Below, piece after piece: positions 6,835 through 64,000 of a DNA stretch of 64,000 nucleotides. The position numbers were made by a program, and so were the translations under genes. This DNA comes from Squalus acanthias (Eukaryota): assembly GCA_030390025.1 (NCBI GenBank), contig CM059432.1:49478001-49542000 (forward strand). The letters run 5' to 3'. The notes under the pieces are model-generated. The model saw only the letters and a program-made list of their open reading frames with translations, made no database searches and was not told where the DNA came from. Every line of letters starts with the position of its first letter. Within the stretch, counting starts at the first letter, position 1.

Positions 6835-8908
6835 TCCGTTCCCCCTGGTATGGCCCTCATCTTCGCTCCCTTAAGTCCAAGACTTGAATGGATATGGCGG
6901 ACAACTGGTTTAGCCATTTACCACCAGATCTGGCAGGACCACATGAAGCATTATCGGGTCCTACTCTCGTCTGCCAAAATTGCTCACTATTCCAGAATCA
7001 TTCTGGAATGCAAAGATAAACCCCAGCTCCTATTCTCTACTGCTAACCATCTTCTTAAACCCCTCTCCCCTGTCTCCTCCACCCTCACCTCTGAAAACAA
7101 GTGTGAGGAACTCATGGACTTCTTTGTCTCTAAGATTGAGACCATCCGTTCAGCTGCCTCTGCCACTTCCATTCCTTTCCCTAGCCCACCGGGCCAAACT
7201 TCTTCTAAGGTCCCCCCTGCCCTAGCCCTGATGTCACATCTTTCTCCATTTTCTCTCTGATCTCCCCTCATGACCTCTCCACGCTCATCTTGTCCATGAG
7301 ACCCACTTCCTGCTCCCTTGACCCTATTCCCACCAAATTGCTGACCACCCAACTTCCTTTTCTGGCTCCCATGTTAACTGATATTGTTAATGGTTCTCTC
7401 TCCTCAGGTACTGTCCCCCTCTCCCTCAAATCTGCTGTCATCACCCCCTCCTCAAAAAAAAACCCTTGACCCCTCCGTCCTTGCAAACTACCACCCCATC
7501 ACCAACCTCCCTTTCCTCTCCAAAGTCCTTGAACGTGTTGTCGCCTCCCAAATCCGTGCCCACCTTTCCTGCAATTCCATGTTTGAATTCCTCCAATCAG
7601 GTTTCCACCCTTGCCACAGTACCGAAATGGCTCTCATCAAATTCACAAATGACATCCTTTGTGACTGTGACAAAAGTAAACTATCCCTCCTCGTCCTTCT
7701 TGACTTGTCTGCAGCCTTTGACATGGTTGACCACTCCATCCTTCTCCAACGCCTCTCCACCATCGTCCAGCTGGGTGGGACTGCACTCGCCTGGTTCCAT
7801 TCTTATCTATCTAATCACCTGCAACAGCTTCTCTTCCCTCTCCCACATCGTTACATCTGGTGTCCCCCAAGGATCTATCCTTGGCCCACTCCTATTTCTC
7901 ATCTACATGTTGCTCCTTGGCGACATCATCCGAAAACACAGCGTCAGTTTCCACATGTACGCTGATGACACCCAGCTCTACCTCACTACCACTTCTCTCG
8001 ACCCCTCCATGGTCTCTAAATTGTCAGACTGCTTGTCCAACATCCAGTTCTGCAAGAGCAGAAATTTTCTCAAAGCCATTATTTTCGGTCCCCGCCACAA
8101 ACTCCGTTCCCTAGCCATTGACTCCATCCCTCTCCCTAACATCTTTCTAAGGCTGAACCACACTGTTCACAGCCTTGGGGTCATATTTGACATGGAAATG
8201 AGCTTCAGACCGCATATCCACAGCACAACTAAGACCGCCTATTTCCACCTCCGTAACATTGCCCGTCTCCACCCTTGCCTCAGCTCATCTGCCGCTGAAA
8301 CCCTCATCCATGCCTTTGCTACCTCTAGACTTGACTATTCCAATGCACTCCAGGCTGGCTTTCCGCATTCTACCCTACGTAAACTTGAGATCATCCAAAA
8401 CATGGCTGCCCGTGTCCCAACTTGCACCAAGTCCCGTTCACCCATCACCCCTATACTCGCTGACCTACATTGGCTCCCGGTTAAGCAACGCCTCGATTTC
8501 AAAATTCTCATCCTTGTTTTAAAATCCCTCCATGGCCTTGCCCCTCCCTATCTCTGTAATCTCCTTCAGCCCCACAACCCCCCAAGATATCTGCACTCCT
8601 CTAATTCTGCTCTCTTGAGCATCCCTGATTATAATCGCTCAACCATTGGTGACCGTGCCTTCTGTTGCCTAGGCCCTAAGCTCTGGAATTCCCTGCCTAA
8701 ACCTTTACGCTTCGCTGCCTCTCTTTCCTCCTTTAAGACGCTCCTTAAAACCTACCTCTTTGACCAAGCTTTTGGTCACCTGCCCTAATTTCTCCTTATG
8801 TGGCTCGGTGTCAATTTCTTTGGCTTTTAATGCTCCTGTGAAGTGCCTTGGGACGTTTTACTATGTTAAAGGTGCTATATAAATACAAGTTGTTGTTGTT
8901 ATTGTTGT
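6835..8908 (+). mobile_element. L2-clade LINE, 5'-truncated, frameshifted RT
   Basis: ORF fragments with LLDLSAAFD, SGVPQGSILGP, YADDTQLY and LHWLPV motifs. L2-type 3' end ccttgggacgttttactatgttaaaggtgctatataaatacaag(ttg)n. Confidence 0.92.
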
Positions 8909-9010: not shown

Positions 9011-11932
9011 GGAGGTTTCCCTGAGACTGTGCACACCTGCAAAGGAAAATGCTTGATTTTCCTTCCATTAATTCAATTAAAAGGAAAATCAGGTAGGTTC
9101 CTTTAGAGGCATATAATCTGACGGGCCAATGTTCTGATATTCCTCCTCCCAGACAACAGACCTTCAACATCCAGGGGTATTCAATATTCAGGAAGGACAG
9201 GAAAAAGGAAAAGGAGGTGGGGTAGCATTGCTGGTTAAAGAGGAGATTAACACAATTGTAAGGAAGGATATTAGCTCTGATGATGTGGAATCTGTATGGG
9301 CAGAGCTGAGAAATACCAAGGGGCAGAAAACGTTAGTGGGAGTTGTATACAGACCCCCAAACAGTAATGCTGAGGTTGGGGATGGCATTAAATGGGAAAT
9401 TAGAGATGCATGCAATAAGGGCACAGCAGTTATCATGGGTGACTTTAATCTACATATAGATTAGGCTAACCAAATTAGTAACAATACTGTGGAGGAGGAA
9501 TTCCTAGAGTGTATACGGAATGGTTTCCTGGACCAATATGTCGAGGAACCAACTAGAGATCAGGCCATCTTAGACTGGGTATTATGTAATGAGAAAGGAT
9601 TAATTAGCAATCTTGTTGTGCGAGGCCCCTTGGGGAAGAGCGATCATAATATGATAGAATTCTTCATTAAAATGGAGAGTGAAGTAGTTGACTCAGAGAC
9701 TAGGGTCCTGAATTTAAATAAAGGAAACTACGATGGTATGAGGCACGAGTTGGTTAGGATGGATTGGGGAATGTTACTTAAAGGGTTGACGGTGGATAGG
9801 CAATGGCAAACATTTAAAGATCGCATGGATGAACTACAGAATTTGTTCATCCCTGTTTGGCATAAAAAATAAAACAAAAAAGGTGACTCAACCGTGGCTA
9901 ACAAGGGAAATTAGGGATAGCATAAGATCCAAGGAGAGGACATATAATTTGGCCAGAAAAAGCAGCAAACCTGAGGATTGGGAGCAGTTTAGGATTCAGC
10001 AAAGGAGGACAAAGGGATTAATTAAGAGGGGGAAAATAGATTATGAGAGTAAGCTTGCAGGGAACATAAAAACTGACTGTAAAAGCTTCTATAGATATGT
10101 GAAGAGAAAAAGATTGGTGAAGTCAAGCGTAGGTCCCTTGCAGTCAGAATCAGGGGAATTTATAATGGGGGACAAAGAAATGGCAGACCAATTAAATACA
10201 TACTTAGGTTCTGTCTTCACAAAGGAGGACACAAATAACCTCCCAGAGATGTTATAGGGTCTAATAAGAGGGAGGAATTGAATGAAATCAGTATTTGTAG
10301 GGAAATGGTGTTAGGGAAATTGATGGGATTGAAGGCCGATAAATCCCCAGGGCCTGATAATCTACATCCTAGGGTACTTAAAGAAGTGGCCCTAGAAATA
10401 GTAGATGCATTGCTGCTCATCTTCCAAAATTCTATAGACTCTGGAACAGTTCCCATGGATTGGAGGATAGATAATGTAACCCCACTATTTAAAAAAGGTG
10501 GTAGAGAGAAAACGGAGAATTATAGTCTGACATCAGTAGTGGGGAAAATGCTAGAGTCCATTATAAAAGATGTAATAGCAGAGCACTTGGAAAACAGTGA
10601 CAGGATCGGACAAAGTCAACATGGATTTACAAAAGGTAAATCATGCTTGACTAATCTACTGGAATTTTTTGAGTATGTAACTGGTAGAATAGAGAAGGGA
10701 GAACCAGTGGATGTGGTGTATTTGGACTTTCAGAAGGCTTTCGATAAGGTCCCGCATAAGAGATTAGCGTGCAAAGTTAAAGCACATGGGATTGGGGGTA
10801 AGGTACTGTATTGGATAGAGAACTGGTTGGCAGACAGGAAGCAAAGAGTTGGAATAAACGGGTCTTTTTCCGAGTGGCAGGCAGTGACTAGTGGGGTACT
10901 GCAGGGATCGGTGCTAGGACCCCAGCTATTCACAATATATATAAATGATCTAGACGAGGGAACTAGATGTAATATCTCCAAGTTTGCAGACGACACAAAG
11001 CTGGGTGGGCGTGTGTGCTGTGAGGAGGATGCAGAGAAACTCCAGTATGATTTGGACAGGTTGGGCAGATGCATGGCAAATGCAGTATAATGTGGATAAA
11101 TGCAAGGTTATCCACTTCGGCGGCAAAAACAGGAAGACAGATTATTATCTGAACGGCAATAGATTGGAAAAACGGGAAGTGCAACGAGACCTGGGTGTCC
11201 TTGTGCACCAGTCGCTGAAGGTAAGCATGCAGGTGCAGCAGGCGGTTAAGAAGGCAAATGGTATGTTGGCCTTCATAGCGAGAGGATTCGAGTACAGGAG
11301 CAAGGATGTCTTGCTGCAGTTGTACAGGGCCTTGGTGAGACCACACCTTGAGTATTGTGTGCAGTTTTGGTCACCTTATCTGAGGAAGGATGTTCTTGCC
11401 ATGGAGAGAGTGCCGCAAATTTTCACCAGACTGATACCTGGGATGGCAGGAATGACGTATGAGAAGAGATTGGGTCGATTAGGCTTATATTCGCTAGAGT
11501 TTAGAAGAATGAGAGGGGATCTCATTGAAACTTATAAAATTCTAACAGGACTAGACAGACTAGATGCAGGAAAGATGTTCCCGATGGCGGGGGAGTCCAG
11601 AACCAGGGGTCACTGTCTAAGGATAAGGGGTAAGCCATTTAGGACTAAGATGAGGAGGAATTTCTTCACCCAGAGAGTGGTGAACCTGTGGAATTCTCTA
11701 CCACACAAGACAGTTGAGGCCAATTCATTAAATATATTCATAAAGGAGTTAGATATATTTCTTAAGGCTAAAGGGATCAAGGGATATGGGGAGAAAGCAG
11801 GGACAGGGTACTGAATTTGGATGATCAGCCATGATCTCATTAAATGGCGGAACAGGCTCGAGGGGCCGAATGGCCTACTCCTGCTCCTATCTTCTATGTT
11901 TCTATGTTTCTATGACTCAGGAAAAATCCCCC
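9011..11932. mobile_element. Short palindromic MITE split by the CR1 insertion
   Basis: Left end ggaggtttccctgag (9012) matches ctcaggaaaaatcccc (~11916) beyond the CR1 tail. Palindromic core gattttcctt...aaggaaaatc at 9055-9090. Confidence 0.45.
9165..11914 (+). mobile_element. CR1 LINE, 5'-truncated within APE, ORF2 disrupted
   Basis: APE motifs (GVVYRPP, MGDFN, SDH) and RT motifs ([22 protein letters not shown]), broken by stops and frameshifts. 3' tail ctcctatcttctatgtttctatgtttctatg. Confidence 0.95.
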
Positions 11933-20411: not shown

Positions 20412-22465
20412 AAGTGTAAAAAATATAAAATAAAATGAATGGAAAAAAAAAGAATAGGGGCAGAGGTTATGGTCTGCAATTGTTGAAGTCTATGTTGAGT
20501 CCAGAAGGCTGTAAAGTGCCTAATCGAATGATGAGATGCTGTTCCTCGAGCTTACGTTGAGCTTCATTGGAACAGTGTAAGAGGCCGAGGACGGTGAGGT
20601 CTGAGTAGGAGTGGAGTGGAGAATTAAAGTGACAGGCGACCGGAAGCTCGGGGTCACCCTTAAAGACTGAACGGAGGTGTTCCGCAAAGCGGTCACCCAA
20701 TCTGCGTTTGGTCTCCCCAATGTAGAGGAGACCGCATTGTGAGCAGCGAATACAGTATACTAAATTGCAAGAAGTACAAGTAAATCGCTGTTTCACCTGG
20801 AAGGAGTGTTTGGGGCCTTGGACAGTGGGAAGGGTGGAGGTAAAAGGGCAGGTGTTGCATCTCCTGCACTTGCATGAGAAGGTGCCGGGCGAAGGGGAAG
20901 GGATGTTGGGGGTGATTGAGGAGTGGACCAGGGTGTCACAGAGGGAGCGGTCCCTTCAGAATGCTGAAAGGGGAGGTGAGGGGAAGATGTGTTTGGTGGT
21001 GGGACCACGCTGGAGGTGGCGGAAATGGCGGAGGATGATCCGTTGAATGTGGAGGCTAGTGGGGTGAAAGGTGAGGACAAGGGGAACTCTATCGTGGTTC
21101 CAGGAGGGAGGGGAAGGGGTGAGAGCAGGAGTGCGGGAAATAGAATGGACACGGTCAAGGGCCGTGTCAACCACAGTAGAGGGGAATCCTCGGTTGAGGA
21201 AAAAGGAAGACACGTCGGAAGCACTGGTATGGAAGATGGCATCATCAGAGCAGATGCGGCGGAGACGGAGAAACTGGGAGAATGGAATAGAGTTCTTACA
21301 GGAAGCGGGATGGGAGGAAGTGTAGTCCAGGTAGCTGTGGGAGTCAGTGGGCTTGTAGTGAATGTTTGTCGATAGCCTATCCCCAGAGATGGAGACAGAG
21401 AAGTCGAGGAAGGGAAGGGAAGAGTCGGAGATGAACCATGTGAAGGTGAGGGAAGGGTGGAAATTGGAAGCAAAGTGAATAAAATTTTCTAGTTCAGGGT
21501 GAGAGCAGGAAACAGCACCAATACAGTCAGCAATGTACCGGAAAAAGAGGTGAGGGAGGGGACCTGAGTAGGACTGGAACAAAGAATGTTCCACATATCC
21601 CATGAAAAGGCAGGCATAGCTGGGACCCAGGCGGGTTCCCATAGCAACACCTTTAATTTGGAGGAAGTGAGTGGAGTCAAAGGAGAAGTTGTGCAATATG
21701 AGAACAAGTTCAGCCAGGCAGCGCAGGGTGGTGGTGGATGGGGACTGGTTGGGCCTTTGTTCAAGGAAGAAGCGGAGCGCCCTCAGGCCATCCTGGTGGG
21801 GGATGGAGGTGTAGAGGGATTGGACGTCCATAGTGAAAAGGAGACGGTTGGGGCTAGGAATCTGCAAACTGTTAAAGTGACGGAGAGCGTCGGAAGAGTC
21901 GCGGATGTAGGTGGGAAGAGACTGGACAAGGGGAGAAAAAATAGAGTCGAGATAGGAAGAGATAAGTTCCGTGGGGCAAGAACAGGCTGAAACGATGGGT
22001 CTACCGGGGCAGTCCTGTTTGTGGATCTTGGGAAGGAGGTAGAAGCGGGCTGAGCGGGGTTAGGGAATGATGAGGTTGGCGGCCATGGAGGGAAGATTTC
22101 CAGAGGAGATGAGGTCAGTGACGGTCTTGGAAACGATGTCTTGATGTTCGGTAGTGGGGTCATGGTCCAGACGGAGGTAGGAGGAGGTGTCGGAGAGTTG
22201 GCGTTCAGTCTCCGCTCGGTAGAGGTCGGTTCGCCAAACAACAACAGCACCACCCTTGTCAGCAGGGTTAATGACAATAGGATTCAAGAGAGACCCTTGA
22301 ATTGCTGTCCCTAGCTGGAGCCAAATGTCCTAAAATTGCTTTTATCTTAGTCAATAATGGATCCCTGTATATCAGAGAAACTTACAGAACCACTGAATAC
22401 CCTGAAAAAGCACAATTCAACATAGCCCTCTCTTGTGACACTCTCTAGAAGAAAACAAAAATATT

Positions 22466-34857: not shown

Positions 34858-37800
34858 TCATAGAATCATACAGCACAGAAGGAGGCCATTCACCCCACCG
34901 TGTCTGTGCTGGCTCTTTGAGGAGCTATCCAATTAGTCCGACTCCCCTGCGTTTTCACCATAGCCTTGCAAGTTTTGCCTTTTCAAGTATATATCCAATT
35001 CCCTTTTGACAGTTACTATTGAATCTGCTTCCACCACCTTTTCAGACAGCGCATTCCAGATCATAACAACTCGCTGCGTAAAAACATTTCTCCTCATCTC
35101 CCCCCTGGCTTTTTTGTCAATTATCTTCAATCCGTGGCCTCTGGTTACCGTTCCCTTGCCAGTGGAAACAGTTTCTCACTATCTACTCCATCAAAACCCC
35201 TTATAATTTTGAACGACTCTATTAAATCACCCCTTAACTGTCTCTACTCTAAGGAGAACAATCCCAGCTTCTCTAGTACCACTACGTAGCATAGTGGTAG
35301 TGTCACTGGGTTAGTAATCCAGAGGCCTGGACTAATGATCCAAAAAACGTGATTTCAAATCCCACCATGGCAGCTGGGGAATTTAAATTCAGTTAATTAA
35401 ATAAATCTGGAATAAAAAGCTAGTATCAGTAATGGTGACCATGAAACTGTCGGATTGTTGTAATAAACCCACCTGGTTCACTAATCTGCCATCCTTACCA
35501 GACCCACAGCAATGTGGTTGACTCTTAACTGCCCTCTGAAATGGCCTAGCAAGCCACTCAGTTGTAAGAAACCACTACAAAGCACAATAATAAGGATGGA
35601 CCATACGGACACGGCAACGGCACACCCAGCCCAGTTGACCATGCAAAGTCCTCCTCACCAACATCTGGGGACTTGTGCCAAAATTGGGAGAGCTGTCCCA
35701 CAGCAGTCAAGCCTGACATAGTCATATGCACAGAATCATACTTTTCAGCCAATGTCCCAAACTCCTCCATCATCATCACTGGCAGGACAGAACCACCAGG
35801 GGTGGTACACAGTCGGGAAGGAGTGGCCCTGGGAGTCCTCAACATTGACTCCGGACCCCATCAGGTCAAGCATGGGCAAGGAAACCTCCTGCTGATTACC
35901 ACCTACCGCCCTCCCTCAGCTGATGAATCAGTACTCCTCCATGTTGAACACTTCTTGGAAGAAGCACTGAGAGTAGCAAGGGGACAGAAGGTACTCTGGG
36001 TGGGGGACTTCAATGACCATCACCAAGAATGGCTCAGTAGCACCACTACTGGCCGAGTCCTGAAGGACTTAACTGCCAGTCTAGGCCTGCCACAGGTGGT
36101 GAAAGAACCAACACGAGAAGAAAAACCTGCTTGACCTCGTCCTTACCAATCGATCTGTCCATGACAGTATTGGTAGCAGTGACCACCGTGCAGTAATTGT
36201 GGACACGAAGTCCCGTCTTCACACTGAGGACACCCTCCGTTGTGTTGCACTACCACCATGCTAAATGGGATAGATTCAAAACAGGGCATCCAGTGGGGCA
36301 GCAGCAGAATTGTATTCCACCACAATCTGTAACCTCATGGCCTGGCATATCCCTCACGCTACCATTACCATCAAGCCAGGGAACCAACCCTGGTTCAATA
36401 AGGAGTGCAGAAGAGCATGCTAGGAGCAGCACCAGGCATACCTAAAAATGAGGTGCCAACCTGGGGAAGCTGCAACACAGGACTACATGCATGTTAAAAA
36501 GCGGAAGTAGCATGCTATAGACAGGGCTAAGTGATCCCACAATCAACGGATCAGATCAAAGCTCTGCAGTCCTGCCACATCCAGTTGTGAATGGTGGTGG
36601 ACCATTAAACAACTAATGGGAGGAAGAGGCTCCATGAATGTCCTCATCCTCAATGATGGTGGAGCCCAGCACGTGAGTGCAAAAGACAAGGCTGTGAAGC
36701 GTTTGCAACCATCTTCAGCCAGAAGTGCTGAGTGGATGATCCATATCGGCCTACTCCTGAGGTCCCCACCATCACAGAAGCCAGTCTTCAGCCAATTCGA
36801 TTCAAGAAACGGCTGAGCGCAGTGGATATAGCAAAGACTATGGGCCCCGACAACATCCCGGCTATCGTGCTGAAGACTTGTGCTCCAGAACTAGCCGCAC
36901 CTCTAGCCAAGCTGTTCCAGTACAGCTACAACACTGGCATCTATCCGACAATGTGGAAAACTGCCCAGATATGTCCTGTCCACAAAAAGCAGGACAAATC
37001 CAACCCAGCCAATTATCGCCCCATCAGTCTACTCTCAATCATCAGCAAAGTGATAGAAGGTGTCATCGACAGTGCTATCAAGTGGCACTTACTCACTAAT
37101 AACCTGCTCACTGATGCCCAGTTTGAGTTCCGCCAAGACCACTCGGCTCCCGAACTCATTACAGCCTTGGTCCAAACATTGACAAAGGAGCTGAATTCCA
37201 GAGGTGAGGTGAGAGTGACTGCCCTTGACATCAAGGCAGCATTTGACCGAGTGTGGCATCAAGGAACCCTAGTAAAACTGAAGTCAATGGGAATCGGGGG
37301 GAAAATGCTCCACTAGGCCCAACTATCGTCAGCTGCTTCATCAATGATCTTCTCTCCAATATAAGGTCAGAAATGGGGATGTTCGCTGATGACTGCACAG
37401 AGTTCAGCGGCATTCATAACTCCTCAGATAATGAAGCAGTCCATGCCCGCATGCAACAAGACCTGGATGACATTCAGGCTTGAGCTGATAAGTGGCAGGT
37501 AACATTCGTGCAACACAAGTGCCAGGCAATGACTATCTCCAACAAGCGAGAGTCTAACCACTGCCCCTTGACATTCAATGGCATTACCATCGCCGAATCC
37601 CCCACCATCAACATCCTGGGGGCCACCATTGACCAGAAACTTAACTGGACCAGCCACATAAATACTGTGGCACCAAGAGCAGGTCAGAGGCTGGGTATTC
37701 TGCAGCGAGTGTCTCACCTCCTGACTCCCCAAAGCCTTTCCACCATCTACAAGGCACAAGTAAGGAGTGTGATGGAATACTCACCACTTGCCTGGATGAG

Positions 37801-38405
37801 TGCAGCTCCAACAACACTCAAGAAGCTCGACACCATCCAGGACAAAGCAGCTCGCTTGATTGGCACCCCATCCACCACCTTAAACATTCACTCCCTCCAC
37901 CACCGGCGTACCATGGTTGCAGTGTGTACCATCTACAAGATGCACTGCAGCAACTCACCAAGGCTTCTTCGGCAGCACCTCCCAAACCCGCGACCTCTTC
38001 CACTTAGAAGGACAAGGGCATCAGGTGCATGGGAACACCACCACCTCCAAGTCACACACCATTCTGACTTTGAAGTATATCGCCGATCCTTCATCCTCGC
38101 TGGGTCAAAATCCTGGAAATCCCTCCCTAACAGCACTGTTGGAGTACCTTCACCACATGGACTGCAGCAGTTCAAGAATGCGGCTCACCACCACCTTCTC
38201 AAGGGCAATTAGGGATGGGCAATAAATGCTGGCCTTGCCAGTGACGCCCACATCCCATAAACGAATTAAAGAAAAACTGAAGTCCCTCATCCCTGGTGCT
38301 ATACTGCATCCTATCCAAGGCCTTGATATCCTTCCTAAAGTCTGGTGCCCAGAATTGGACACGATAATCTAACTGAGGCCTAACCAATGGTTTATAAAGG
38401 TTCAC
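34858..38405 (-). mobile_element. CR1 3' fragment (34858-35275 and 38275-38405) split by a LINE insertion
   Basis: Tail atcatagaatcatacagcacagaagg. RRNVFTQRVVMIWNAL and [15 protein letters not shown] pieces are colinear across the insert. Confidence 0.85.
35286..38270 (+). mobile_element. Single-ORF (APE-RT) CR1/L2-group LINE with a tRNA-like SINE-type 5' head; decayed
   Basis: A box tagcatagtgg (35287) and B-box-like atttcaaatccc (35352). APE starts ~35645 (KVLLTNIWGL..DIVICTES..YRPP..VGDFN). RT motifs ALDIKAAFD and FADDC. Tail aagggcaattagggatgggcaataaatgctggcc. Confidence 0.85.
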
Positions 38406-46090: not shown

Positions 46091-46682
46091 AAAATCCTTA
46101 TCAAACATAGCACATCAGATCATTACTTTTGTCAATGCCCATCTTCTACCAGATTCAGAAGGACAAAACAGAACCTAACTCTAAATTTCACTTCATAACA
46201 CTATATAAGACTGCCAACTTTCATGTAATAATGTGCTGTATCTGCACACTTACTTAACAGTAGAAAAGAGCCGTCATTATCCTGGTAACACACAATATAT
46301 TATGTCTGACTAAAGTTGCTAATTCCAAGGCAGGAATTAACTTGGGCACTCCAAAGTGTAAATCAATGTAACGAGACACTGTTTTTTGGCAGGAATCCCA
46401 TTGAAAATGTGAAGTTAATTATTTCATTCCTTTGTAGGGCGATTAATTAATTATAAGCCGCTGAGTTGCAAAGGCAAATTAAGTGATTCACAAAAGTTGA
46501 CTGTAGACTAGTTTAAATGCAGTGCTTAATTGGTAATATCCTCCATGCTTCCACTACCCTTCAGATATTTAAGAACCCCCTAATTCAGACAACTTTGGAG
46601 ATAGGAAGGAAGACTGCAAATTCTGGAAATTGTAACTAAAAACAGGAATTGAATGAAATACACAGAAAAAGAAAGACAGATT

Positions 46683-49417: not shown

Positions 49418-52258
49418 TCAGTACCCCATTCCTGCTTTCTCACCATACCCCTTGATCCCCCTAGTTGTGACTATTATATCTAACTCCCTTTTGAATATAT
49501 TTAGCGAACTGGCCTCAACAACCTTCTGTGGTAGAGAATTCCACAGATTCACCACTCTCTGGATGAAGAAGTTCCTCCTCATCTCAGTCTTAAATGGCTT
49601 CCCCTTTATCCTTAGACTGTAACCCCTGGTTTTAGTTTTCCCTAACATTGGAAACATTCTGCCCGCATCTAATTTGTCTAAACCAGTCAGGATTTTAAAT
49701 GTCTCTATAAGATCCCCCCTCATTCTTCTGAACTCCAGAGGATACAAGTTCAGTTGATCCAGTCTTTCTTGATATGTCAGTCTGGCCATCCCAGGAATCA
49801 ATCTAGTGAACCTTCGTTGCACTCCCTCAATAGCAAGAATGTCCTTCCTCAAGTTAGGAGACCAAAACTGCACACAATACTCCAGGTGTGGCCTCACCAA
49901 GGCCCTGTACAACTGTAGCATCACCTCCCTACTCCTGTACTCAAATCCCCTTGCTATGAAGGCCATCATGCCATTTGCTTTCTTGACTGCCTGCTGCACT
50001 TGCCTTCCCACCTTCAGTGACTGATGTACCATGACGCCCAGGTCTCGTTGCACCTCCCCTTTCCCTAATCTGCCACCATTCAGGTAATAGTCTGCCTCCC
50101 TATTTTTACCACCAAAGTGGATAACCTCACATTTATCCACATTGTACTTCATCTGCCATACATTTGCCCATTCACCCAACCTGTCCAAGTCACTCTGTAG
50201 CCTCCTAGCATCCTCCTCATTGTTCACACTGCCTCCCAATTTAGTGTCATCCGCAAATTTGGAGATATTACAATTAATCCCTTCGTCCAAATCATTAATA
50301 TATAATGTAAACAGCTGGGGTCCCAGCACCGAACCCTGCGGTACCCCGCTGGTCACTGCCTGCCATTCTGAAAAGTACCCATTTACTCCTACTCTTTGTT
50401 TCCTGTGTGCCAACCAGTTCTCAATCCACGTCAACACATTACCCCCAATCCCATGTGCTTTAACTTTGCACACCAATCTCTTGTGTGGGACCTTGTCGAA
50501 GGCCTTCTGAAAGTCCAAATACACCACATCTACTGGTTCCCCCCCGTCCACTCTATTGGAAACATCCTCAAAAAATTCCAGAAGATTTGTCAAGCATGAT
50601 TTCCCTATCACAAATCCATGCTGACTTGGACCTATCATGTCGCCACTTTCCAAATGGTCTGTTATGACATCTTTAATAATTGATTCCATCATTTTACCCA
50701 CCACCGATGTCAGGCTGACCGGTCTATAATTCCCTGCTTTCTCCCTCCCTCCTTTTTTAAAAACAGGGGTTACATTAGCCACCCTCCACTCCTTCGGAAC
50801 TGATCCAGAGTCTAAGGAATGTTGGAAAATGATCGTCAATGCATCCACTATTTCCAAGGCCACCTCCTTAAGTACTCTGGGATGCAGACCATCAGGCCCT
50901 GGGGATTTATCAGCCTTCAGTCCCATCAATTTCTCCAACACCTTTTCCCGACTGATAAGGATTTCCCTCAGCTCCTCCCTCTTACCAGATCCTTTGATCT
51001 CTTTTATTTCCGGAAGGTTGTTTGTGTCCTCCACAGTAAACACCGAACCAAAGTAGTTGTTCAATTGATCTGCCATTTCTTTGTTCCCCATTATGACTTC
51101 CCCTGTTTCTGACTGCAGGGGACCTACGTTTGTTTTTACTAACCTCTTTCTTTTTACATATTTATAGAAGCTTTTGCAGTCCGTTTTAATGTTCTCCGCA
51201 AGCTTCCTTTCATATTTTATTTTCCCTGCCCTAATCAAACCCTTCGTCCTCCTCTGCTGAGTTTTAAAGTTCTCCCAGTCCCCAGGTTTGCTGCTACTTC
51301 TGGCCAATTTGTATGCCACTTCCTTGCTTTTAATACTATCCCTGATTTCCCTTGTTAGCCATGGTTGAGCCACCTTCCCTTTTTTATTTTTACGCCAGAC
51401 AGGGATGTACAATTGCTGTAGTTCATCCATGCGATCTCTAAATGTCTGCCATTGCCCTTCCACTGATAACCCCTTAAATATCGCTTGCCAATCTAACCTC
51501 GCCAATTCACGCCTCATACCCTCAAAGTTGCCCTTATTTAAGTTCTGGACCATGGTCTCTGAATTAACTGTTTCCTTCTCCATCCTAATGTAGAACTCCA
51601 CCATACTATGGTCACTCTTCCCCAAGGGGCCTCGCACCACAAGATTGCTGATTAGTCCTTCCTCATTACACAACACCCAGTCCAGGATGGCCTCTCCTCT
51701 AGTTGGTTCCTCAACATATTGGTTTAGGAAACCATCCCTTAAACACTCCAGGAAATCCTCCTCCACCGTATTGCTTCCAGTTTGAGTAGCCCAATCTATA
51801 TGCATATTAAAGTCACCCATGATAACTGCTGTGCCTTTTTTGCATGCACCTCCAATTTCCTGTTTCATACCCTCCCCCACCTCACTACTACTGTTTGGAG
51901 GTCTGTACACAACCCCCACTAATGTTTTCTGCCCTTTGGTGTTCTGCAGCTCAACCCATATTGATTCCACATCCTCCAAGCTAATGTCCTTCCTAGCTAT
52001 TGCATTAATCTCCTTTTTAACCAGCAATGCTACCCCACCCCCTTTTCCTTTTATTCTATCCTTCCTGAATGTTGAATACCCCTGGATATTCAGTTCCCAG
52101 CCTTGATTGTTCTGGAGCCACGTCTCTGTAATCCCAATCACATCATATCCGTTAACATCAATTTGCACAGTCAATTCATCCACCTTATTACGGATACTCC
52201 TTGCATTAAGACACAGAGCCTTTAGGCTTGTTTTATTAACACCCTTTGTCCTTTTAGA
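49418..52258 (-). CDS. CR1 ORF2p: APE endonuclease + reverse transcriptase (open from 52258; upstream frame reaches the ORF1 overlap through one TAG)
   Basis: [54 protein letters not shown]. No internal stops. No ATG between the TAG and the APE start. Confidence 0.93.
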   Translation of the reverse strand, partial: SKRTKGVNKTSLKALCLNARSIRNKVDELTVQIDVNGYDVIGITETWLQNNQGWELNIQGYSTFRKDRIKGKGGGVALLVKKEINAIARKDISLEDVESIWVELQNTKGQKTLVGVVYRPPNSSSEVGEGMKQEIGGACKKGTAVIMGDFNMHIDWATQTGSNTVEEDFLECLRDGFLNQYVEEPTRGEAILDWVLCNEEGLISNLVVRGPLGKSDHSMVEFYIRMEKETVNSETMVQNLNKGNFEGMRRELARLDWQAIFKGLSVEGQWQTFRDRMDELQQLYIPVWRKNKKGKVAQPWLTREIRDSIKSKEVAYKLARSSSKPGDWENFKTQQRRTKGLIRAGKIKYERKLAENIKTDCKSFYKYVKRKRLVKTNVGPLQSETGEVIMGNKEMADQLNNYFGSVFTVEDTNNLPEIKEIKGSGKREELREILISREKVLEKLMGLKADKSPGPDGLHPRVLKEVALEIVDALTIIFQHSLDSGSVPKEWRVANVTPVFKKGGREKAGNYRPVSLTSVVGKMMESIIKDVITDHLESGDMIGPSQHGFVIGKSCLTNLLEFFEDVSNRVDGGEPVDVVYLDFQKAFDKVPHKRLVCKVKAHGIGGNVLTWIENWLAHRKQRVGVNGYFSEWQAVTSGVPQGSVLGPQLFTLYINDLDEGINCNISKFADDTKLGGSVNNEEDARRLQSDLDRLGEWANVWQMKYNVDKCEVIHFGGKNREADYYLNGGRLGKGEVQRDLGVMVHQSLKVGRQVQQAVKKANGMMAFIARGFEYRSREVMLQLYRALVRPHLEYCVQFWSPNLRKDILAIEGVQRRFTRLIPGMARLTYQERLDQLNLYPLEFRRMRGDLIETFKILTGLDKLDAGRMFPMLGKTKTRGYSLRIKGKPFKTEMRRNFFIQRVVNLWNSLPQKVVEASSLNIFKRELDIIVTTRGIKGYGEKAGMGY

Positions 52259-52401
52259 CTATTGATTTAGTATGGCCCTTTGTGTTTCTTGCCTTTGTTT
52301 ACTTGGATTTCCCTTATTGTTTCTCACCCTTCTAACATTTGTTTCTGACTGCATATTACTTCCCCCTGTTTCGCTACATAGGTTCCCATTCCCCTGCCAT
52401 A

Positions 52402-53346
52402 TTAGTTTAAATCCTCCCGAACTGCCTTAGCAAATATTACCCCGAGGACATCGGTTCCAGTCCTGCCCAAGTGCAGACCGTCCCTTTTGTACAGGTCCCA
52501 CTTCCCCCAGAACTGGTTCCAATGCCTCAGGTATTTGAATCCCTCCCTCCTGCACCACTGCTCAAGCCACGTATTTAATCTTGCTATCCTGTTCATGCTA
52601 CTCTGATTAGCACGTGGCACTGGTAGCAACCCAGAGATTACTACCTTTGAGGTCCTACTTTTCAATTTAGCTCCTAGCTCCCTAAATTCTGCTTGTAGGA
52701 CCTCTTCCCACTTTTTACCTATATCGTTGGTACCTACATGCACCACGACAGCTGGCTCTTCACCCTCCCTTTCCAGAATGTTCTGCAGCCGCTCCGAGAC
52801 ATCCTTGACCCTTGCACCAGGGAGGCAACATACCATCCTGGAATCTCGGTTGCGGCCACAGAAACTCCTGTCTAATCCCCTTACAATTGAGTCCCCTATC
52901 ACTATAGCTCTACCACTCTTTTTCCCGCCCTGCTGTGCAGCAGAGCCAGCCATGGTGCCATGAACCTGGCTGCTGGTGCCTTCCCCTGGTAGGTCATTTC
53001 CCCCAACAGTATCCAAAACGGTATATCTGTTTTGGAGGGAGATGACCGCAGGGGACTCCTGCACTACCTTCCTGATATTGCCCTGCCTCTTGGTCACCCA
53101 TTTACTGTCTGACCTAGCCTTTACCCGCGGTGTGTTCAACTCACTAAATGAGTAATCCACAAAGTTCTCGGCATCATGGATGCTCCAGAGTGAGTCCATC
53201 CGCAGCTCCAGTGCCGCCATGCGGTCCGTCAGGAGCTGCAGCTGGACGCACTTCCTGCACACATAGTTGCCAGGGACACTGGAAGTGTCCCTGATTTCCC
53301 ACATAGCACAGGAGGAGCACGACACGGTTCCGAGATTTCCTGCCAT
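52402..53346 (-). CDS. CR1 ORF1p: N-terminal CxxC..CxxC zinc finger / coiled coil plus SGNH esterase domain (314 aa)
   Basis: CSSC..CRKC. SGNH blocks VIGDSIVRG, LPGA, HVGTND and DGLH. ATG in context gtcATGG. Confidence 0.92.
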   Translation of the reverse strand: MAGNLGTVSCSSCAMWEIRDTSSVPGNYVCRKCVQLQLLTDRMAALELRMDSLWSIHDAENFVDYSFSELNTPRVKARSDSKWVTKRQGNIRKVVQESPAVISLQNRYTVLDTVGGNDLPGEGTSSQVHGTMAGSAAQQGGKKSGRAIVIGDSIVRGLDRSFCGRNRDSRMVCCLPGARVKDVSERLQNILEREGEEPAVVVHVGTNDIGKKWEEVLQAEFRELGAKLKSRTSKVVISGLLPVPRANQSSMNRIARLNTWLEQWCRREGFKYLRHWNQFWGKWDLYKRDGLHLGRTGTDVLGVIFAKAVREDLN

Positions 53347-54992
53347 GACTTAACCCTTATATTACTTTATTAAGTTAAGTCCCTGAAAACAAAATATAAA
53401 TCGAACCTACCTTTTAAATTCCCTCTACCCCTAAAGGTTAGAGGAGGTGGGAGGGTGGGAGACACTACTAGTGTAGTGTCTCGGGTTTAGCAACAGCTCC
53501 ACCTATATACGGGTACCAATGAATTGGCCCCGCCCTCTGACTTTGACCCCTGCTGATTGATTAGAAAACTGGTTTCCACTGCCTGCTGTGCCAATTTACT
53601 GCTACTGCAGTGTAACCTTGTTTTACTCTTCTTAAACCAACAGAATCCCAAATATTTAACTTTTCCCCTTCACTTAAACTGCTTAAGTACTCTTATCAAG
53701 AATGCGGGAAGGTGGAGTTGAGGTAGAAGATCAGCCATGATCTTGTTGAATGGTGGAGCAGGCTTGAAGGGCCAAATGGCCTACTCCTGCTCCTATTTCT
53801 TATGTTCTTATGTTTTGTGTGTGCTTTTGCGTAACCTACTGATGTCACGCAGTGCTACCCCAATGGCTGCAGCATAGCTGATGGAAGGCTGCTGACTTTC
53901 AGTGGAGGGCACTGAAAATGGCCTTGCTGGTTGACCTTGAAGAGCTGGTGGCTAGGTGTGTCAAATCAAGTGACGATGTTTCTTCTTCTTCTTCTTCACT
54001 CTCCTCTCCCTGTTCTTGGTCAATCACTGACTGGGCAAGCTGCATTTCTTGGGTGTGTGAAATGAGGAAGGCACAAGGGTAGAGTTGTGGTAAAGTGAGG
54101 GTGGGAAAGCAAGAGGTGCATGCCAGAAGGAGGATAACATATGAGGATACCTGTATCTTGTATCCTTTCTGCCCTGCCGCTGGCCAAGGGCTCAGCCGTG
54201 CCCCTGCCAAGAATAGCTAGCACCGTCTCCTCCAAGGGGTGAGGTGAGGCTAGGAATTGGAGATGTGGCTCGTGATTGGTACAGATTGCTGGTAGGTAAG
54301 TGATTGGAGGGGCAGGGAGTCATGCATTGAGCAGTATGTGATGTTAGTGGTACAGTTGGTAGGAAACGGCTTTTGAAGATGCATTCTTGACCAGTGGTCT
54401 GAGGTCATGAAGCTTCTTTGGAAGTGATGTGGTCCCACATCCTTCTTCCTGGAGGGCCTCCTGGCCCCTGTGGGTAGAGGACCTCTCTTGCAGTGTTGGC
54501 CCCCTGCACAAAGCTGAAGTGATCCTTCCATGACCCTGTGTGCCCCTTCCCTGGCTTGCTGAGCCATTTGTGTTAGTGCTGAAGCACTTTTCCCATCTTT
54601 TGAGGTTTGGAAGGGAATTCAGCTTTAAGTGCTGAAGACTCCCATTTGGGACTTCTTTATAATGTTAATTTTTTTTAAAAGGCAGTAAGGGCTGAAAACT
54701 GCATTTTTCCAGCATTTAATTTTTATTATTTCTGAACGCATTGTCCTTTTAATTCATTGCCCTTTTAATTACCCATAATTCCTTGCAAACTCCACAGCCT
54801 CACTTCTCGATGCTGTTAGAAGCTGGACCGCTACTTCAGGATGGGAACTTTGACTTCCATGCCTGCACTAACGCCACCAGGAGTGCGTTACACAGTAAGT
54901 TGGTGCTGGGCTAAAAATGTTTAGCCCTCAGCGCGAATTTTTCTCTGGTAGCACTTCATCAATTTTCAGCGCCTATTAACCTGAGTTGCCGG

Positions 54993-56161: not shown

Positions 56162-57160
56162 TTAAAGGAGGTCGGGAGCCGAGTGGTCTTGGCGGAACCC
56201 AAACTGGGCATCTGTGAGCAGGTTATTGGTGAGTAAGTGCCGCTTGACAGCACTGTCGATGACTCCTTCCATCACTTTGCTGATGATTGAGTGTAGACTG
56301 ATGCGGCGGTAATTGGCCGGGTTGGATTTGTCCTGCTTTTTGTAGACAGCACATACCTGGGCAGTTTTCCACATTGTCGGATAGATGCCAGTGTTGTAGC
56401 TGTACTGGAACAGCTTGGCTAGAGGCGTGGCTAGTTCTGGAGCACAAGTTTCCAGCACGATAGCTGGGATGTTGTTGGGGCCCAGAGCCTTTGCTGTATC
56501 CAGCGTGCTCAGCCGTTTCTTGATATCACGTGGAGTGAATCGAATTGGCTGAAGACTGGCTTCTGTGATGGTGGTGACCTCAGGAGTAGGCCGATATAGA
56601 TCATCCACTTGGCACTTCTGGCTGAAGATGGTTGCAAATACTTCAGCCTTGTCTTTTGCACTCACGTGCTGGGCTCCACCATCATTGAGGATGGGGATAT
56701 TCATGGAGCCTCCTCCCATTAGTTGTTTAATGGTCCACAACCATTCACGACTGGATGTGGCAGGACTGCAGAGCTTTGATCTGATCCGTTGATTGTGGGA
56801 TCGCTTAGCCCTGTCTATAGCATGCTGCTTCCGCTTTTTAGAATGCATGTAGTCCTGTGTTGCAGCTTCCCCAGGTTGGCACCTCATTTTTAGGTACGCC
56901 TGGTGCTGCTCCTGGCATGCTTTTCTACACTCCTTATTGAACCAGGGTTGGTCCCCTGGCTTGATGGTAATGGTAGAGTGAGGGATATTCCGGGCCATGA
57001 GGTTACAGATTGTGGTGGAATACAATTCTGCTGCTGCTGATGGCCCACAGTGCCTCATGGATGCCCAGTTTTGAGCTGCTAGATCTGTTCTGAATCTATC
57101 CCATTTAGCACGGTGGTAGTGCCACACAACACGATGGAGGGTGTCCTCAGTGTGAAGACA
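56162..57160 (-). mobile_element. Internal fragment of the 35286-38270 LINE family (open 321-codon segment)
   Basis: QPWFNKECR, GPNNIPAIVL, ANYRRISL, QFGFR. Closely similar to 36220-37160. Confidence 0.9.
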
Positions 57161-57979
57161 TGACAGTCAACCAGAAGCTTCCGCAAAATCTAGATAAGAA
57201 TGCTGATAAAACCCAAAATGTAACAACCCCTACCCTCTCAAGAAAAATAAATAGATCCTTCGTACTTTATGTAAGATTTTGACTGCATAAACAAACACTT
57301 TCTAAGCCTATTTAAAGTCTTCACTTAACGTGCTTTCCAATCATCTTCCTAATCAGTCTTAAGGTTTTGACAATTCTACAATAATCGATTTAGATGGAAT
57401 TTTATAGTTATCTTATAGTTATCCTATTCTCTCATTTTATATCTCTATTTAATATTTGTTCTTTTCTATTTGCTTTGGAACAGCACATTCAGTTCAGCTG
57501 TTAAGGGTTATAATCAACAATCAGATCGCTTTGTTTAATCTGAATGCCGTTAATGGGAAGCGTTAGGTTCCAAGCATTTTATCTTTTAATGGAAAGTATG
57601 CTCCACTGAATTATCCCATTGTCCTTAAATGTCAAAAAGAGAGACAACTGCAAACTGTACCAATGTCTTCCTCTGTGATTTAGAACTACTGCTTTTTTGA
57701 GAGGAGAAGATTTGTGTAGAACTGCCCTGATGTGATATTATGAAGCTCTGTTCCATTAGCCTTGTGCTTGGATATGGTGGGCCGTGGTCACTTCTTCCTA
57801 TTCATCAGGTCACATCAGGGAAGTTCAATATAATGGGGGTGATTGCCTTGGGGATCCTACCATTCATCTACCATAACATCGGCAGAAGAGCCATAGAAAC
57901 CTCAAGAAAAATATTGTAAATGATATTCTGTGGTACTCTACGATGAGTGGCTCATGTCCTGATCCCTCAATGTCTTCTA

Positions 57980-61480: not shown

Positions 61481-64000
61481 AACGGTCTACACCTGTGCAA
61501 AGATGGAACTGATGTTCTCGGGGTAATTTTTGATAAAGCAGTTTGGGAGCATTTAAACTAGTATGGCAGGGGGCTAGAAACCTATGTAGTGAAATAGAGG
61601 AAAGTGAAAGGCAGACAGAAATAAATGGTAAAAGGGTGAGGAACAAAAAACAAAGGGCCAAACCAATTCATAAAAAATGTGAGCATAAAAAAAGCCTGAG
61701 GGTTTTATACCTTAATGCGAGAAGCATCAGGAACAAGGTAGATGAATTAGCTGTGGAAATAGAGGTTAATAATTATGATCTAATTGGGATTACGGAAACA
61801 TGGTTGCAGGGTGAGCAGGGCTGGGAGCTTAACATACAGGGGTATTCAGTATTTAGGAAGGATCGACAAAAAAGAAAGGGAGGAGGGGTAGCATTGCTGG
61901 TAAAAGAAGGGATAAATGCAATTGAAAGGAAGGATATTAACTCAGTTAATACAGAATCTATATGGGTGGAGCTAAGAAATAGCGAGGGGCGAAAAACATT
62001 AATAGGAGTGGTATATAGGCCTCCAAATAGTAAAATAGAGGTTGGGGAGGGCATCACGAGGGAAATTAGAGAAGCGTGCAATAAGAGCACAGCTGTCATC
62101 ATAGGTGACTTTAACTTACATATAGATTGGAATAGCCTAATCAGTAAAAATAATGAGGAGGAGGAATTCCTTGAGTGTTTAAGGGATGGTTATCTGGATC
62201 AATATGTCGAGGAACCAACTCGGGAACAGGCTATATTGGACTGGGTACTGTGCAATGAGAAGGGACTAATTAGTAATCTTGTTGTACGGGGACCCTTGGG
62301 TCAGAGCGATCATAACATGATCGATTTCTCACTCGAAATGGAGAGCGAAGAAATTGACTCAGATACTAAGGTCCTGAATTTAAACAAGGGGAATTATGAT
62401 GCCATTAGACGGGAACTGAGTAGGTCTGATTGGACAACGTTCCTGGGAGGACTGGAGGTAGATAAACAATGGCAAGCATTTAAAGATAGAATGACAAAAT
62501 TGCAAAAATTGTTTATACCAATCTGGCATAAAAGGAAATCTAAAAAGGTGACTCAACCGTGGATAACAGGGGAAATTAGAGACAGCATAAAATCCAAAGA
62601 TAGGGCGTATAAAATAGCCAAAAAAAGCGCCAGAGCGGAAGATTGGGAACAGTTTAAGATAGAGCAAAGGAGGACAAAGGGCTTAATCAAGAGGGGCAAA
62701 ATAGCTTACGAAAGCAAGCTGGCGGAAAATATAAAAACTAACTCCAAAAGCTTTTATAAGTATATCAAGAGGAAAAGACTGGTGAAAACCAAAGTTGGCC
62801 CATTGCAGTCAGATACGGGGGAATATATAACGGGAAATAAAGAAATGGCAGACCAACTAAATGCATACTTTGGGTCAGTCTTTACGAAGGAAGACACAAA
62901 AAACCTCCCTGGGATATCGGGAAAAATAGGGACATTTGCAAAGGAGGAACTGACGCAAGTCAATATCTCTAAGGATATGGTGTTAAGGAAGCTAAAGGGA
63001 TTGAAGGCGGACAAATCCCCAGGGCCTGATAACATGCATCCTAGGGTGCTGAAGGAGGTGGCCCTAGAGATAGCGGATGCACTAAGTATGATTTTTCAGA
63101 ATTCATTAGACTCGGGAACAGTGCCCATGGATTGGAGGGTAGCTAACGTTACCCCACTATTCAAAAAGGGGGGTAGGGAAAAAGCAGGTAATTACAGACC
63201 TGTAAGCCTTACATCAGTTGTGGGCAAAATGCTGGAGTCCATCATTAAGGATGAAATAGCGGAGCACTTAGCAAATGGGGACAGGATAGGACAGAGTCAA
63301 CATGGATTTACAAAGGGTAAATCGTGCTTGACTAATCTATTGGAATTTTTTGAGGGAGTAACTGGTAAAATAGATGGGGGAGAGCCAGTAGATGTGGTGT
63401 ACCTGGACTTCCAAAAGGCCTTCGATAAGGTCCCACATAAAAGATTAGCAGGGAAAATTGAAGCTCATGGGATAAAGGGGAAAGTATTGACGTGGATAGA
63501 GAACTGGCTGTCAGATAGAAAACAGAGAGTTGGAATAAACGGCTCATTTTCTGAATGGCAGGCAGTAACAAGTGGGGTACCACAGGGATCTGTCCTGGGT
63601 CCCCAGCTGTTCACAATTTACATTAATGACCTGAATCAGGGAGTCGGATGCAACATTTCCAAATTTGCAGACGACACTAAACTAGGAGGGGGGGTGGGCT
63701 CAGAGGAGGAGACCAGGAAGCTCCAGAGCGATTTGGACAGACTGGGTGATTGGGCGGATAAATGGCAGATGCACTATAATGTGGACAAGTGCGAAGTTAT
63801 CCACCTTGGGTGCAGGAACGGGAGGGCAAATTATTATTTAAATGGCAATAAATTGGGAGAGGGGGAAGTACAGAGAGACCTGGGTGTTCTTGTACACCAG
63901 TCACTGAAGGCGAGCATGCAGGTGCAACAGGCGGTCAAGAAGGCAAACGGTATGCTGGCCTTCATAGCAAAAGGGTTGGAATACAGGAACAGGGATACCT
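61481..64000 (+). mobile_element. CR1 LINE, 5'-truncated in the last part of ORF1, runs off the window
   Basis: ORF1 C-terminus NGLHLCKDGTDVLGVIFDKAVWEHLN* (61481-61561) followed by an uninterrupted ORF2. Confidence 0.95.
61537..64000 (+). CDS. CR1 ORF2p (APE-RT), stop-free to the window end; absent from the supplied ORF track
   Basis: Translated by hand with no stops: [53 protein letters not shown]. First in-frame ATG is at 62317. Confidence 0.92.

Follow-up and report, generated by a model that had tools for sequence, protein, structure and literature searches.

How the second open reading frame of a LINE comes to be translated is, according to PMC3894237, still an open question, and the cases that have been worked out are mainly those of L1 and SART1 (PMC2881922). 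In human L1 and in SART1, the latter with a UAAUG stop–start arrangement, ORF2 of a bicistronic RNA depends on the translation of ORF1 and is made as a free ORF2p; both elements have an AUG at the ORF2 start. CR1 is a dominant LINE in birds (PMC2734521), and vertebrate CR1s whose ORF1 carries a zinc-finger/leucine-zipper and an esterase are classified as CR1 subgroup 7, type IVB (PMC4120745); descriptions of these elements take the products of ORF1 and ORF2 to be two distinct proteins, of about 36 and 95 kDa, respectively, in chicken (PMC2734521). In the portions of PMC4120745 and PMC2734521 that were covered, the CR1 descriptions mention neither a frameshift nor a fusion. The TRE5-A and TRE3-A elements of Dictyostelium are two-ORF APE-type LINEs for which a −1 frameshift is stated to be necessary for ORF2 (PMC5911963), and they thus provide a precedent for such a mechanism among non-LTR elements; they differ in belonging to another element family and an amoebal host, and according to PMC5006619 the TRE ORF1 proteins bear no likeness to ORF1s from elsewhere. 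A full-text search, outside which lie the first publications on CR1 of chicken and turtle and the Repbase notes, which may mention an overlap, found no paper proposing frameshifting in CR1, and the covered part of PMC5009743 makes no mention of CR1.

The window analysed here, a stretch of 64,000 nucleotides of the Squalus acanthias genome, ends within a CR1 copy that begins at position 61482 and in which the ORF1 and ORF2 frames meet at a slippery heptamer (Table 1). In common with subgroup 7 its family has the ORF1 Cys motifs and SGNH esterase, an ORF2 with APE and RT, the frequent 5' truncation and the short tandem-repeat 3' tail. The clade name itself, which we take to be CR1, draws on similarity to unnamed or hypothetical ORF2 proteins of birds, turtles and rays and on general features of CR1 elements. 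ORF2 runs on to a stop at window-equivalent position 64503, 503 bases past the window end, so that the frame counts 983 codons from the heptamer; a 3' UTR follows and ends in the tandem-repeat tail, and there is no LTR. Pfam places Exo_endo_phos on ORF2 residues 55–254 and the reverse transcriptase on residues 541–751. The copy is 99.8% identical (median; minimum 99.2%, over 1.7 kb) to its 29 best-matching siblings, in which the ORF1 remnant extends to a 315-aa ORF1; the closest named ORF1 homologues include a sawshark entry (73%), an ORF1 alignment shows an invariant Cys pair, resembling a zinc-finger motif, together with the esterase residues, and Pfam Lipase_GDSL_2 matches the full ORF1 homologue of the window's other CR1. 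The 61482 copy, which has kept only the last 25 ORF1 codons, is not translatable through ORF1, and the mechanism proposed below therefore applies to its full-length siblings.

Table 1. Features of the two CR1 copies in the window (window positions)
Feature	Position	Strand	Basis or remark
Young CR1 LINE copy, 5'-truncated, continuing past the window end	61482..64000	+	sequence, siblings
ORF1 remnant: last 25 codons and stop; SGNH/GDSL esterase C-terminus, ending L-N-stop	61484..61561	+	
TGA TAA, closing the −1 (ORF2) frame five codons 5' of the heptamer	61531..61536	+	
Slippery heptamer T_TTA_AAC, in X_XXY_YYZ phase relative to ORF1	61552..61558	+	
ORF1 stop TAG	61559..61561	+	stop codon here in 86/90 copies compared
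K/R/E-rich linker, stop-free in the −1 frame only	61562..61695	+	sequence
Conserved unstructured G-rich motif, candidate stimulator; G-run at 61569–61573	61564..61578	+	
CTG, first Leu of the APE domain; near-cognate start candidate in a rival model	61696..61698	+	
APE endonuclease domain, complete set of catalytic motifs, starting at 61708 (YLN), 61792 (TETW), 62014 (YRPP), 62104 (GDFN), 62236 (LDW) and 62305 (SDH)	61696..62313	+	Pfam, motifs
First in-frame ATG, 3' of SDH	62317..62319	+	sequence
Reverse transcriptase domain	63172..63804	+	Pfam RVT_1, E=2.9e-31
Other CR1, different subfamily, full 314-aa ORF1	49418..53349	−	
Other CR1: heptamer	52405..52411	−	
Other CR1: ORF1 stop	52402..52404	−	
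Other CR1: family-wide linker ATG	52352..52354	−	
Other CR1: copy-specific linker TAG	52259..52261	−	

A preliminary description had given exactly these coordinates for the TGATAA, the TTTAAAC, the TAG and the first in-frame ATG, and had noted an ORF2 frame open to the end of the window, as is the case (61537–63999). It had further held that the first in-frame ATG follows the final APE motif and that a functional ORF2p consequently needs recoding or a non-AUG start. Both statements stand: every APE motif lies 5' of this ATG, which is codon 256, and the linker AUG is absent family-wide. That an AUG was merely lost in the 61482 copy is ruled out by its siblings, by copies sampled blind to the linker and by a genome-wide count. 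Linker Met occurs in none of 30 near-identical copies (the 61482 copy and 29 siblings chosen by similarity) and a linker ATG in none of 6 subfamily copies taken without regard to the linker; at the likeliest AUG site this family has AGG where the window's other CR1 has ATG, and among 2,220 genome-wide matches to the surrounding 30-mer (either base allowed) 2 carry ATG. The first ATG sits at the position equivalent to 62317 in 28 of the 30 copies, and in 2 of the 30 a stop precedes the ATG. The linker of the 61482 copy holds four ATGs, all of them out of frame, and in the −1 frame there is none between the TGATAA and the heptamer. At the Met frequency of this ORF2, a run of 255 codons free of Met has P = 0.002–0.012, and the 54 codons before the first catalytic motif, which are the stretch that counts, have P = 0.28–0.39, so that the missing AUG is a matter of functional constraint and not of statistical rarity. 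As support for frameshifting, the use to which the preliminary description had put it, the missing AUG goes part of the way: AUG-dependent reinitiation is excluded, while AUG-independent initiation of the L1 type is left standing and the absence is specific to the subfamily. Unlike L1 and SART1, the element has no in-frame AUG near the ORF1 stop (the ATG at 61563 is out of the ORF2 frame, which speaks against stop–start of the SART1 type) and has a fixed slippery heptamer. The DxExNPGP motif of 2A/StopGo, in the form given in the covered part of PMC3894237, is absent from the linker translations.

The junction was compared across copies sampled with a degenerate pattern for the ORF1 esterase motif 80 nt 5' of the site, which matched 17,658 places genome-wide. 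The 90 copies analysed are the first 90 of 100 matches listed, all on one contig; clustering them at 88% identity gives 12 clusters, two of them intermingled, which do not equal 12 independent lineages. TTTAAAC is exact in 84 of the 90 copies and reads TTTAAAT in 3 more. Genome-wide the exact heptamer is present at 22,208 of 23,736 sites (93.6%), where a site may encode x-Leu-Asn-stop by whichever synonymous codons and is located by the downstream motif. The heptamer is in phase with the upstream ORF1, as X_XXY_YYZ, and its first T is fixed while the amino acid encoded by the codon to which it belongs is Gly, Asp or His. Within this genome, 6 of 18 third positions 5' of the heptamer likewise do not vary, and five of these belong to the last 10 codons. 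Since the upstream nucleotides are conserved as well, the invariance of the heptamer may in part reflect shared ancestry; the fixed third positions at ORF1 codons −10 to −4 may also represent a 5' signal element or a recent exchange between subfamilies. Subfamilies C, F and L have a run of at least eight G in ORF1 just 5' of the heptamer, a hotspot of indels by which ORF1 is often disrupted in the genomic copies.

Downstream of the heptamer the three frames behave very differently. The APE start could be located in 87 copies and is in the −1 frame in 74; the 13 with APE in other frames are read as copy-specific indels, and in 3 more copies no start was located. Between heptamer and APE, the 74 in-frame copies together have 1 stop in the −1 frame, 274 in the 0 frame and 377 in the +1 frame; the linker is open in 73 of them in the −1 frame and in none in either other frame, and the suggestion that it is stop-free as though translated thus holds well beyond the copy for which it was made. 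Linkers range from 45 to 66 codons and stay in the same frame, so the indels that separate the subfamilies have kept the frame. On the 5' side, closure of the −1 frame five codons before the heptamer is the majority state in 10 of the 12 clusters (C and F being the exceptions), and in most clusters no ATG lies in the −1 frame between this closure and the heptamer, which confines entry into the −1 frame to the heptamer region.

A linker ATG is present in 45 of the 74 in-frame copies and absent from 29. These AUGs lie at non-homologous positions in different subfamilies (codons 20, 24, 44, 45 and about 53), and where they occur the −1 frame is also open across the 19–52 codons 5' of them; they consequently do not explain the open −1 frame. 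By lineage, linkers free of AUG are found in 6/6 copies of E, 6/6 of F, 4/5 of G, 2/3 of J and 1/1 of L. The APE tree retained 33 of the 74 copies, leaving out those with stops or short reads and with clusters I, J and K absent, and in it E, F, G and L occupy separate branches, J not being included. Taken by lineage, an AUG before the APE domain is missing from this and four others, fixed in four and mixed in two, and the first Met of the AUG-less families is at unrelated codons (61, 75, 167, 179 and 256). From the heptamer onward the −1 frame is under purifying selection, and translation appears to enter it at or just around the heptamer. The evidential weight lies in three features taken together: the heptamer is conserved, stops are avoided in one frame specifically, and the −1 frame is shut a short way ahead of the heptamer.

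The search for a downstream stimulator combined nested folding, duplex scans and alignment folding. In 13 representatives, windows of 45, 70 and 110 nt after the stop showed no 3' structure beyond that of shuffled sequences (z-scores −1.4 to +1.8), and a folded alignment of 10 copies yielded zero consensus pairs; a local stimulatory structure was rejected on these two counts, and the stem-loop or pseudoknot that canonical sites carry 5–9 nt downstream was not found. The duplex scans gave no long-range pairing partner common to all subfamilies: a strong partner for the G-rich motif some 550 nt upstream is present in A, B, F and one G copy and missing from C, D, E and J. A two-tier G-quadruplex of marginal energy is predicted in 6 of the 13 representatives, this family not among them, and was not counted. 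Conservation resides in a linear motif that reads CAG GGG xxx GGG in the −1 frame; its synonymous positions are nearly fixed, which points to a G-run acting at the RNA level. The G-run begins 11 nt 3' of the heptamer, and the motif is a candidate stimulator. Two viral cases described in the covered part of PMC5009743 serve as precedents and not as tests of the CR1 site: −1 shifting in pea enation mosaic virus is strongly influenced, and enhanced, by a stop close to the site, and in PRRSV, an arterivirus, a linear motif 11 nt downstream of the shift site is bound by protein (PMC5009743). The likeness to PRRSV, where a linear homopolymer-rich motif at 11 nt takes the place of RNA structure, is an analogy only, the CR1 motif being G-rich and not C-rich.

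The layout, the slip phase and their conservation are observed, as is the fact that this subfamily and several others have no AUG ahead of the endonuclease. Judged from these sequence features, ORF2 is probably translated by programmed −1 frameshifting at U_UUA_AAC, which would yield an ORF1p–ORF2p fusion. U_UUA_AAC is the shift site of IBV. It is listed in the covered part of PMC5009743 among the most shift-prone heptamers. Most ribosomes would halt at the ORF1 stop and release an ORF1p of about 35 kDa, while a minor fraction would slip back by one base with tRNA-Leu and tRNA-Asn (UUA AAC to UUU AAA), bypass the stop and continue from ...EHLN into LVWQG..., producing an ORF1p–linker–endonuclease–RT fusion some 1,296 aa long. 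Slippage is probably of low efficiency, and help for it would come from the stop next to the site, the linear G-run or both, and not from a pseudoknot; since a LINE requires ORF1p in large and ORF2p in small numbers, a low rate would be fitting. The linker AUGs of other subfamilies would then be ordinary internal Met codons or an optional second route, and frameshifting and reinitiation could coexist. The arrangement resembles retroviral gag–pol and coronavirus 1a/1b junctions in heptamer and phase, in the enzymes encoded in the −1 frame and in the stop that soon follows the site, and gag–pol also in the structural protein upstream of it; CR1 is unlike both in that no downstream pseudoknot or stem-loop was found, in the lack of a protease for the fusion and in being a non-LTR element. 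The junction is a real and deeply conserved feature, and the element most likely works in the manner of gag–pol −1 shifting, although no structured stimulator of the kind that canonical sites have was found.

The strongest competitor, though an unlikely one, is reinitiation or leaky initiation independent of AUG in the manner of L1, or at a linker AUG, giving a free ORF2p from the first APE Leu (CTG in this family) or from the linker. An AUG-independent start of ORF2 is the favoured model for mammalian LINEs in the covered parts of PMC5009743 and PMC2881922. The first APE Leu is CTG or TTG in all AUG-less lineages, with an A at −3 in this family, and CTA or TTA in three of the four lineages with a fixed AUG; both observations are post hoc, and the base rate of CTG or TTG is 47%. 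The 45 copies with a linker ATG and the failure to find a stimulatory structure downstream also speak for it. Initiation of this kind, however, leaves unexplained why the heptamer is fixed across vertebrates and why the linker 5' of any AUG or CTG is stop-free in the −1 frame only; moreover, ribosomes moving from the ORF1 stop to the CTG in this family would meet the four out-of-frame ATGs, and no near-cognate codon close to the ORF1 stop is conserved in the compared copies.

Joining of the frames at the RNA level, whether the ORF2 frame is reached by a splice out of the 5' UTR or ORF1 or by transcriptional slippage that adds one base at T/A runs, is considerably less probable. Stork gene models, which are predictions, do splice upstream exons into the ORF2 frame. 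In this genome, two raw RNA-seq runs (2,066 and 3,622 reads) and two contig sets cover the junction, with reads from both strands that are possibly intronic; for the stretch from 61482 onward and at a 3% threshold, the reads of the two raw runs contain no splice joint and no indel in the heptamer, and many loose read ends, which leave some room for joining, were not displayed in the comparison. Neither a conserved AG nor a polypyrimidine tract is present in the few open codons upstream, and the T/A runs are just three bases long, which disfavours slippage.

Slightly less probable again is an endonuclease-less RT starting at the Met at 62317, or an ORF2p borrowed in trans from the AUG-bearing subfamilies. 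Such donors are abundant in the same genome, yet the AUG-less families have kept intact APE motifs and an open frame and place their first Met at unrelated positions; this family numbers at least 2,220 copies, and the constraints on linker and heptamer would stay unexplained. The least credible reading gives the conserved stretch another role, as a motif in RNA or DNA or as the C-terminus of a protein, with its slippery form a coincidence: the conservation reaching some 10 codons upstream in this genome and an esterase fold that may require L-N fit it, but L-N dictates neither TTA, AAC nor the preceding T, and an ORF2 that would be free to take any frame is in −1 in every subfamily whose APE start was located and in the metagenomic element described next.

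Beyond this genome, the junction recurs in a distant CR1 on a metagenome contig (L152), the one CR1 of this clade among the 12 loci returned by the metagenome search, whose ORF1 is 42% identical to a turtle ORF1. Its junction reads CAT TTA AAC TAG with a G-run at the same spacing, followed by an open, AUG-less −1 linker running into YLNARS, and of the 12 codons 5' of the site nearly all differ from the majority codon in the shark. Among 105 ORF1 matches examined, 67 carry the C-terminal motif and 55 of these end in L-N, including named rays, coelacanth, a mormyrid fish (a teleost), frogs and a tortoise; among more distant esterase ORF1s (50%-cluster representatives) 46 of 103 do so, which limits the signal to one clade. 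From the other side, 21 of 100 ORF2 gene models with a recognisable APE start have F-K-L in the ORF2 frame 5' of APE, 20 from stork and 1 from a ray, the bird and ray evidence being protein gene models and not DNA. Over as many as 15 codons the stork peptide could be the −1 reading of an ORF1 tail ending RALN, and two ORF1 matches with upstream frameshifts likewise read through as F-K-L. Taken together, the L-N-stop and F-K-L readings force T TTA AAY plus a stop. Many bird and turtle ORF2 models begin at a linker Met. The search for longer fused ORF1–ORF2 proteins gave 1 unrelated match among 7,998 scored candidates, which is weak evidence either way; a search of viral contigs gave no matches, and one of genome contigs weak esterase matches only.

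It is possible, and put forward tentatively, that the esterase-type CR1s of jawed vertebrates share one ancestral −1 cassette made up of U_UUA_AAC, the stop next to it and, 11 nt 3', a G-run that lacks structure. Such a cassette would need no pseudoknot, acting through termination that is slow and a protein that binds the G-run, and the CR1 replicase would be a Gag-Pol-like fusion tethered into the particle by its ORF1p part. The cassette would extend to sharks, rays and birds, and probably to turtles, frogs, coelacanth and some teleosts, and the protein might be a host G-run binder or ORF1p itself acting as feedback. The elements concerned are abundant, with at least 17,658 ORF1 ends in this genome. 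If the conserved frameshift is real, the CR1 replicase would be redefined as an ORF1p–ORF2p fusion, the database ORF2 models that start at inconsistent Mets or within the endonuclease would be explained, and the criteria for an intact CR1 as well as the design of retrotransposition constructs would change; a natural −1 site lacking an evident structured stimulator would also be added to those described.

The window's other CR1 belongs to a subfamily in which all 30 near-identical copies compared have ATG as linker codon 20. Its siblings carry CAT AAG or CAA AAG where it has the linker TAG, which is therefore copy-specific, and ORF2 of the family accordingly does not start with the ORF listed from 52258. 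A third near-match to the junction, TTTAAACTAG at 46508–46517, was set aside, having no G-rich motif after it and no CR1 context by eye. Further retroelement fragments lie at 7391–8788 (+), 20956–22059 (−), 37484–38212 (+), 56162–57166 (−) and 10239–11814 (+); by eye these five comprise RT pieces like those of L2, Penelope-like and other LINEs and a 5'-truncated, frameshifted CR1, and Pfam RVT_1 matches three of the four RT-bearing window fragments scanned.

UGA-CUA is a readthrough context. In a distant esterase-ORF1 element (L153:804-1744) ORF1 ends TGA CTA and an APE-like domain (Pfam E=0.007) follows in the same frame, also preceded by an in-frame Met; readthrough of the stop may therefore yield the same fusion in related LINEs. 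Two CR1 proteins (P0010 and P0250) are deposited under bacterial names, Pseudomonas aeruginosa and Carnobacterium maltaromaticum, on short contigs, and are probably host contamination.
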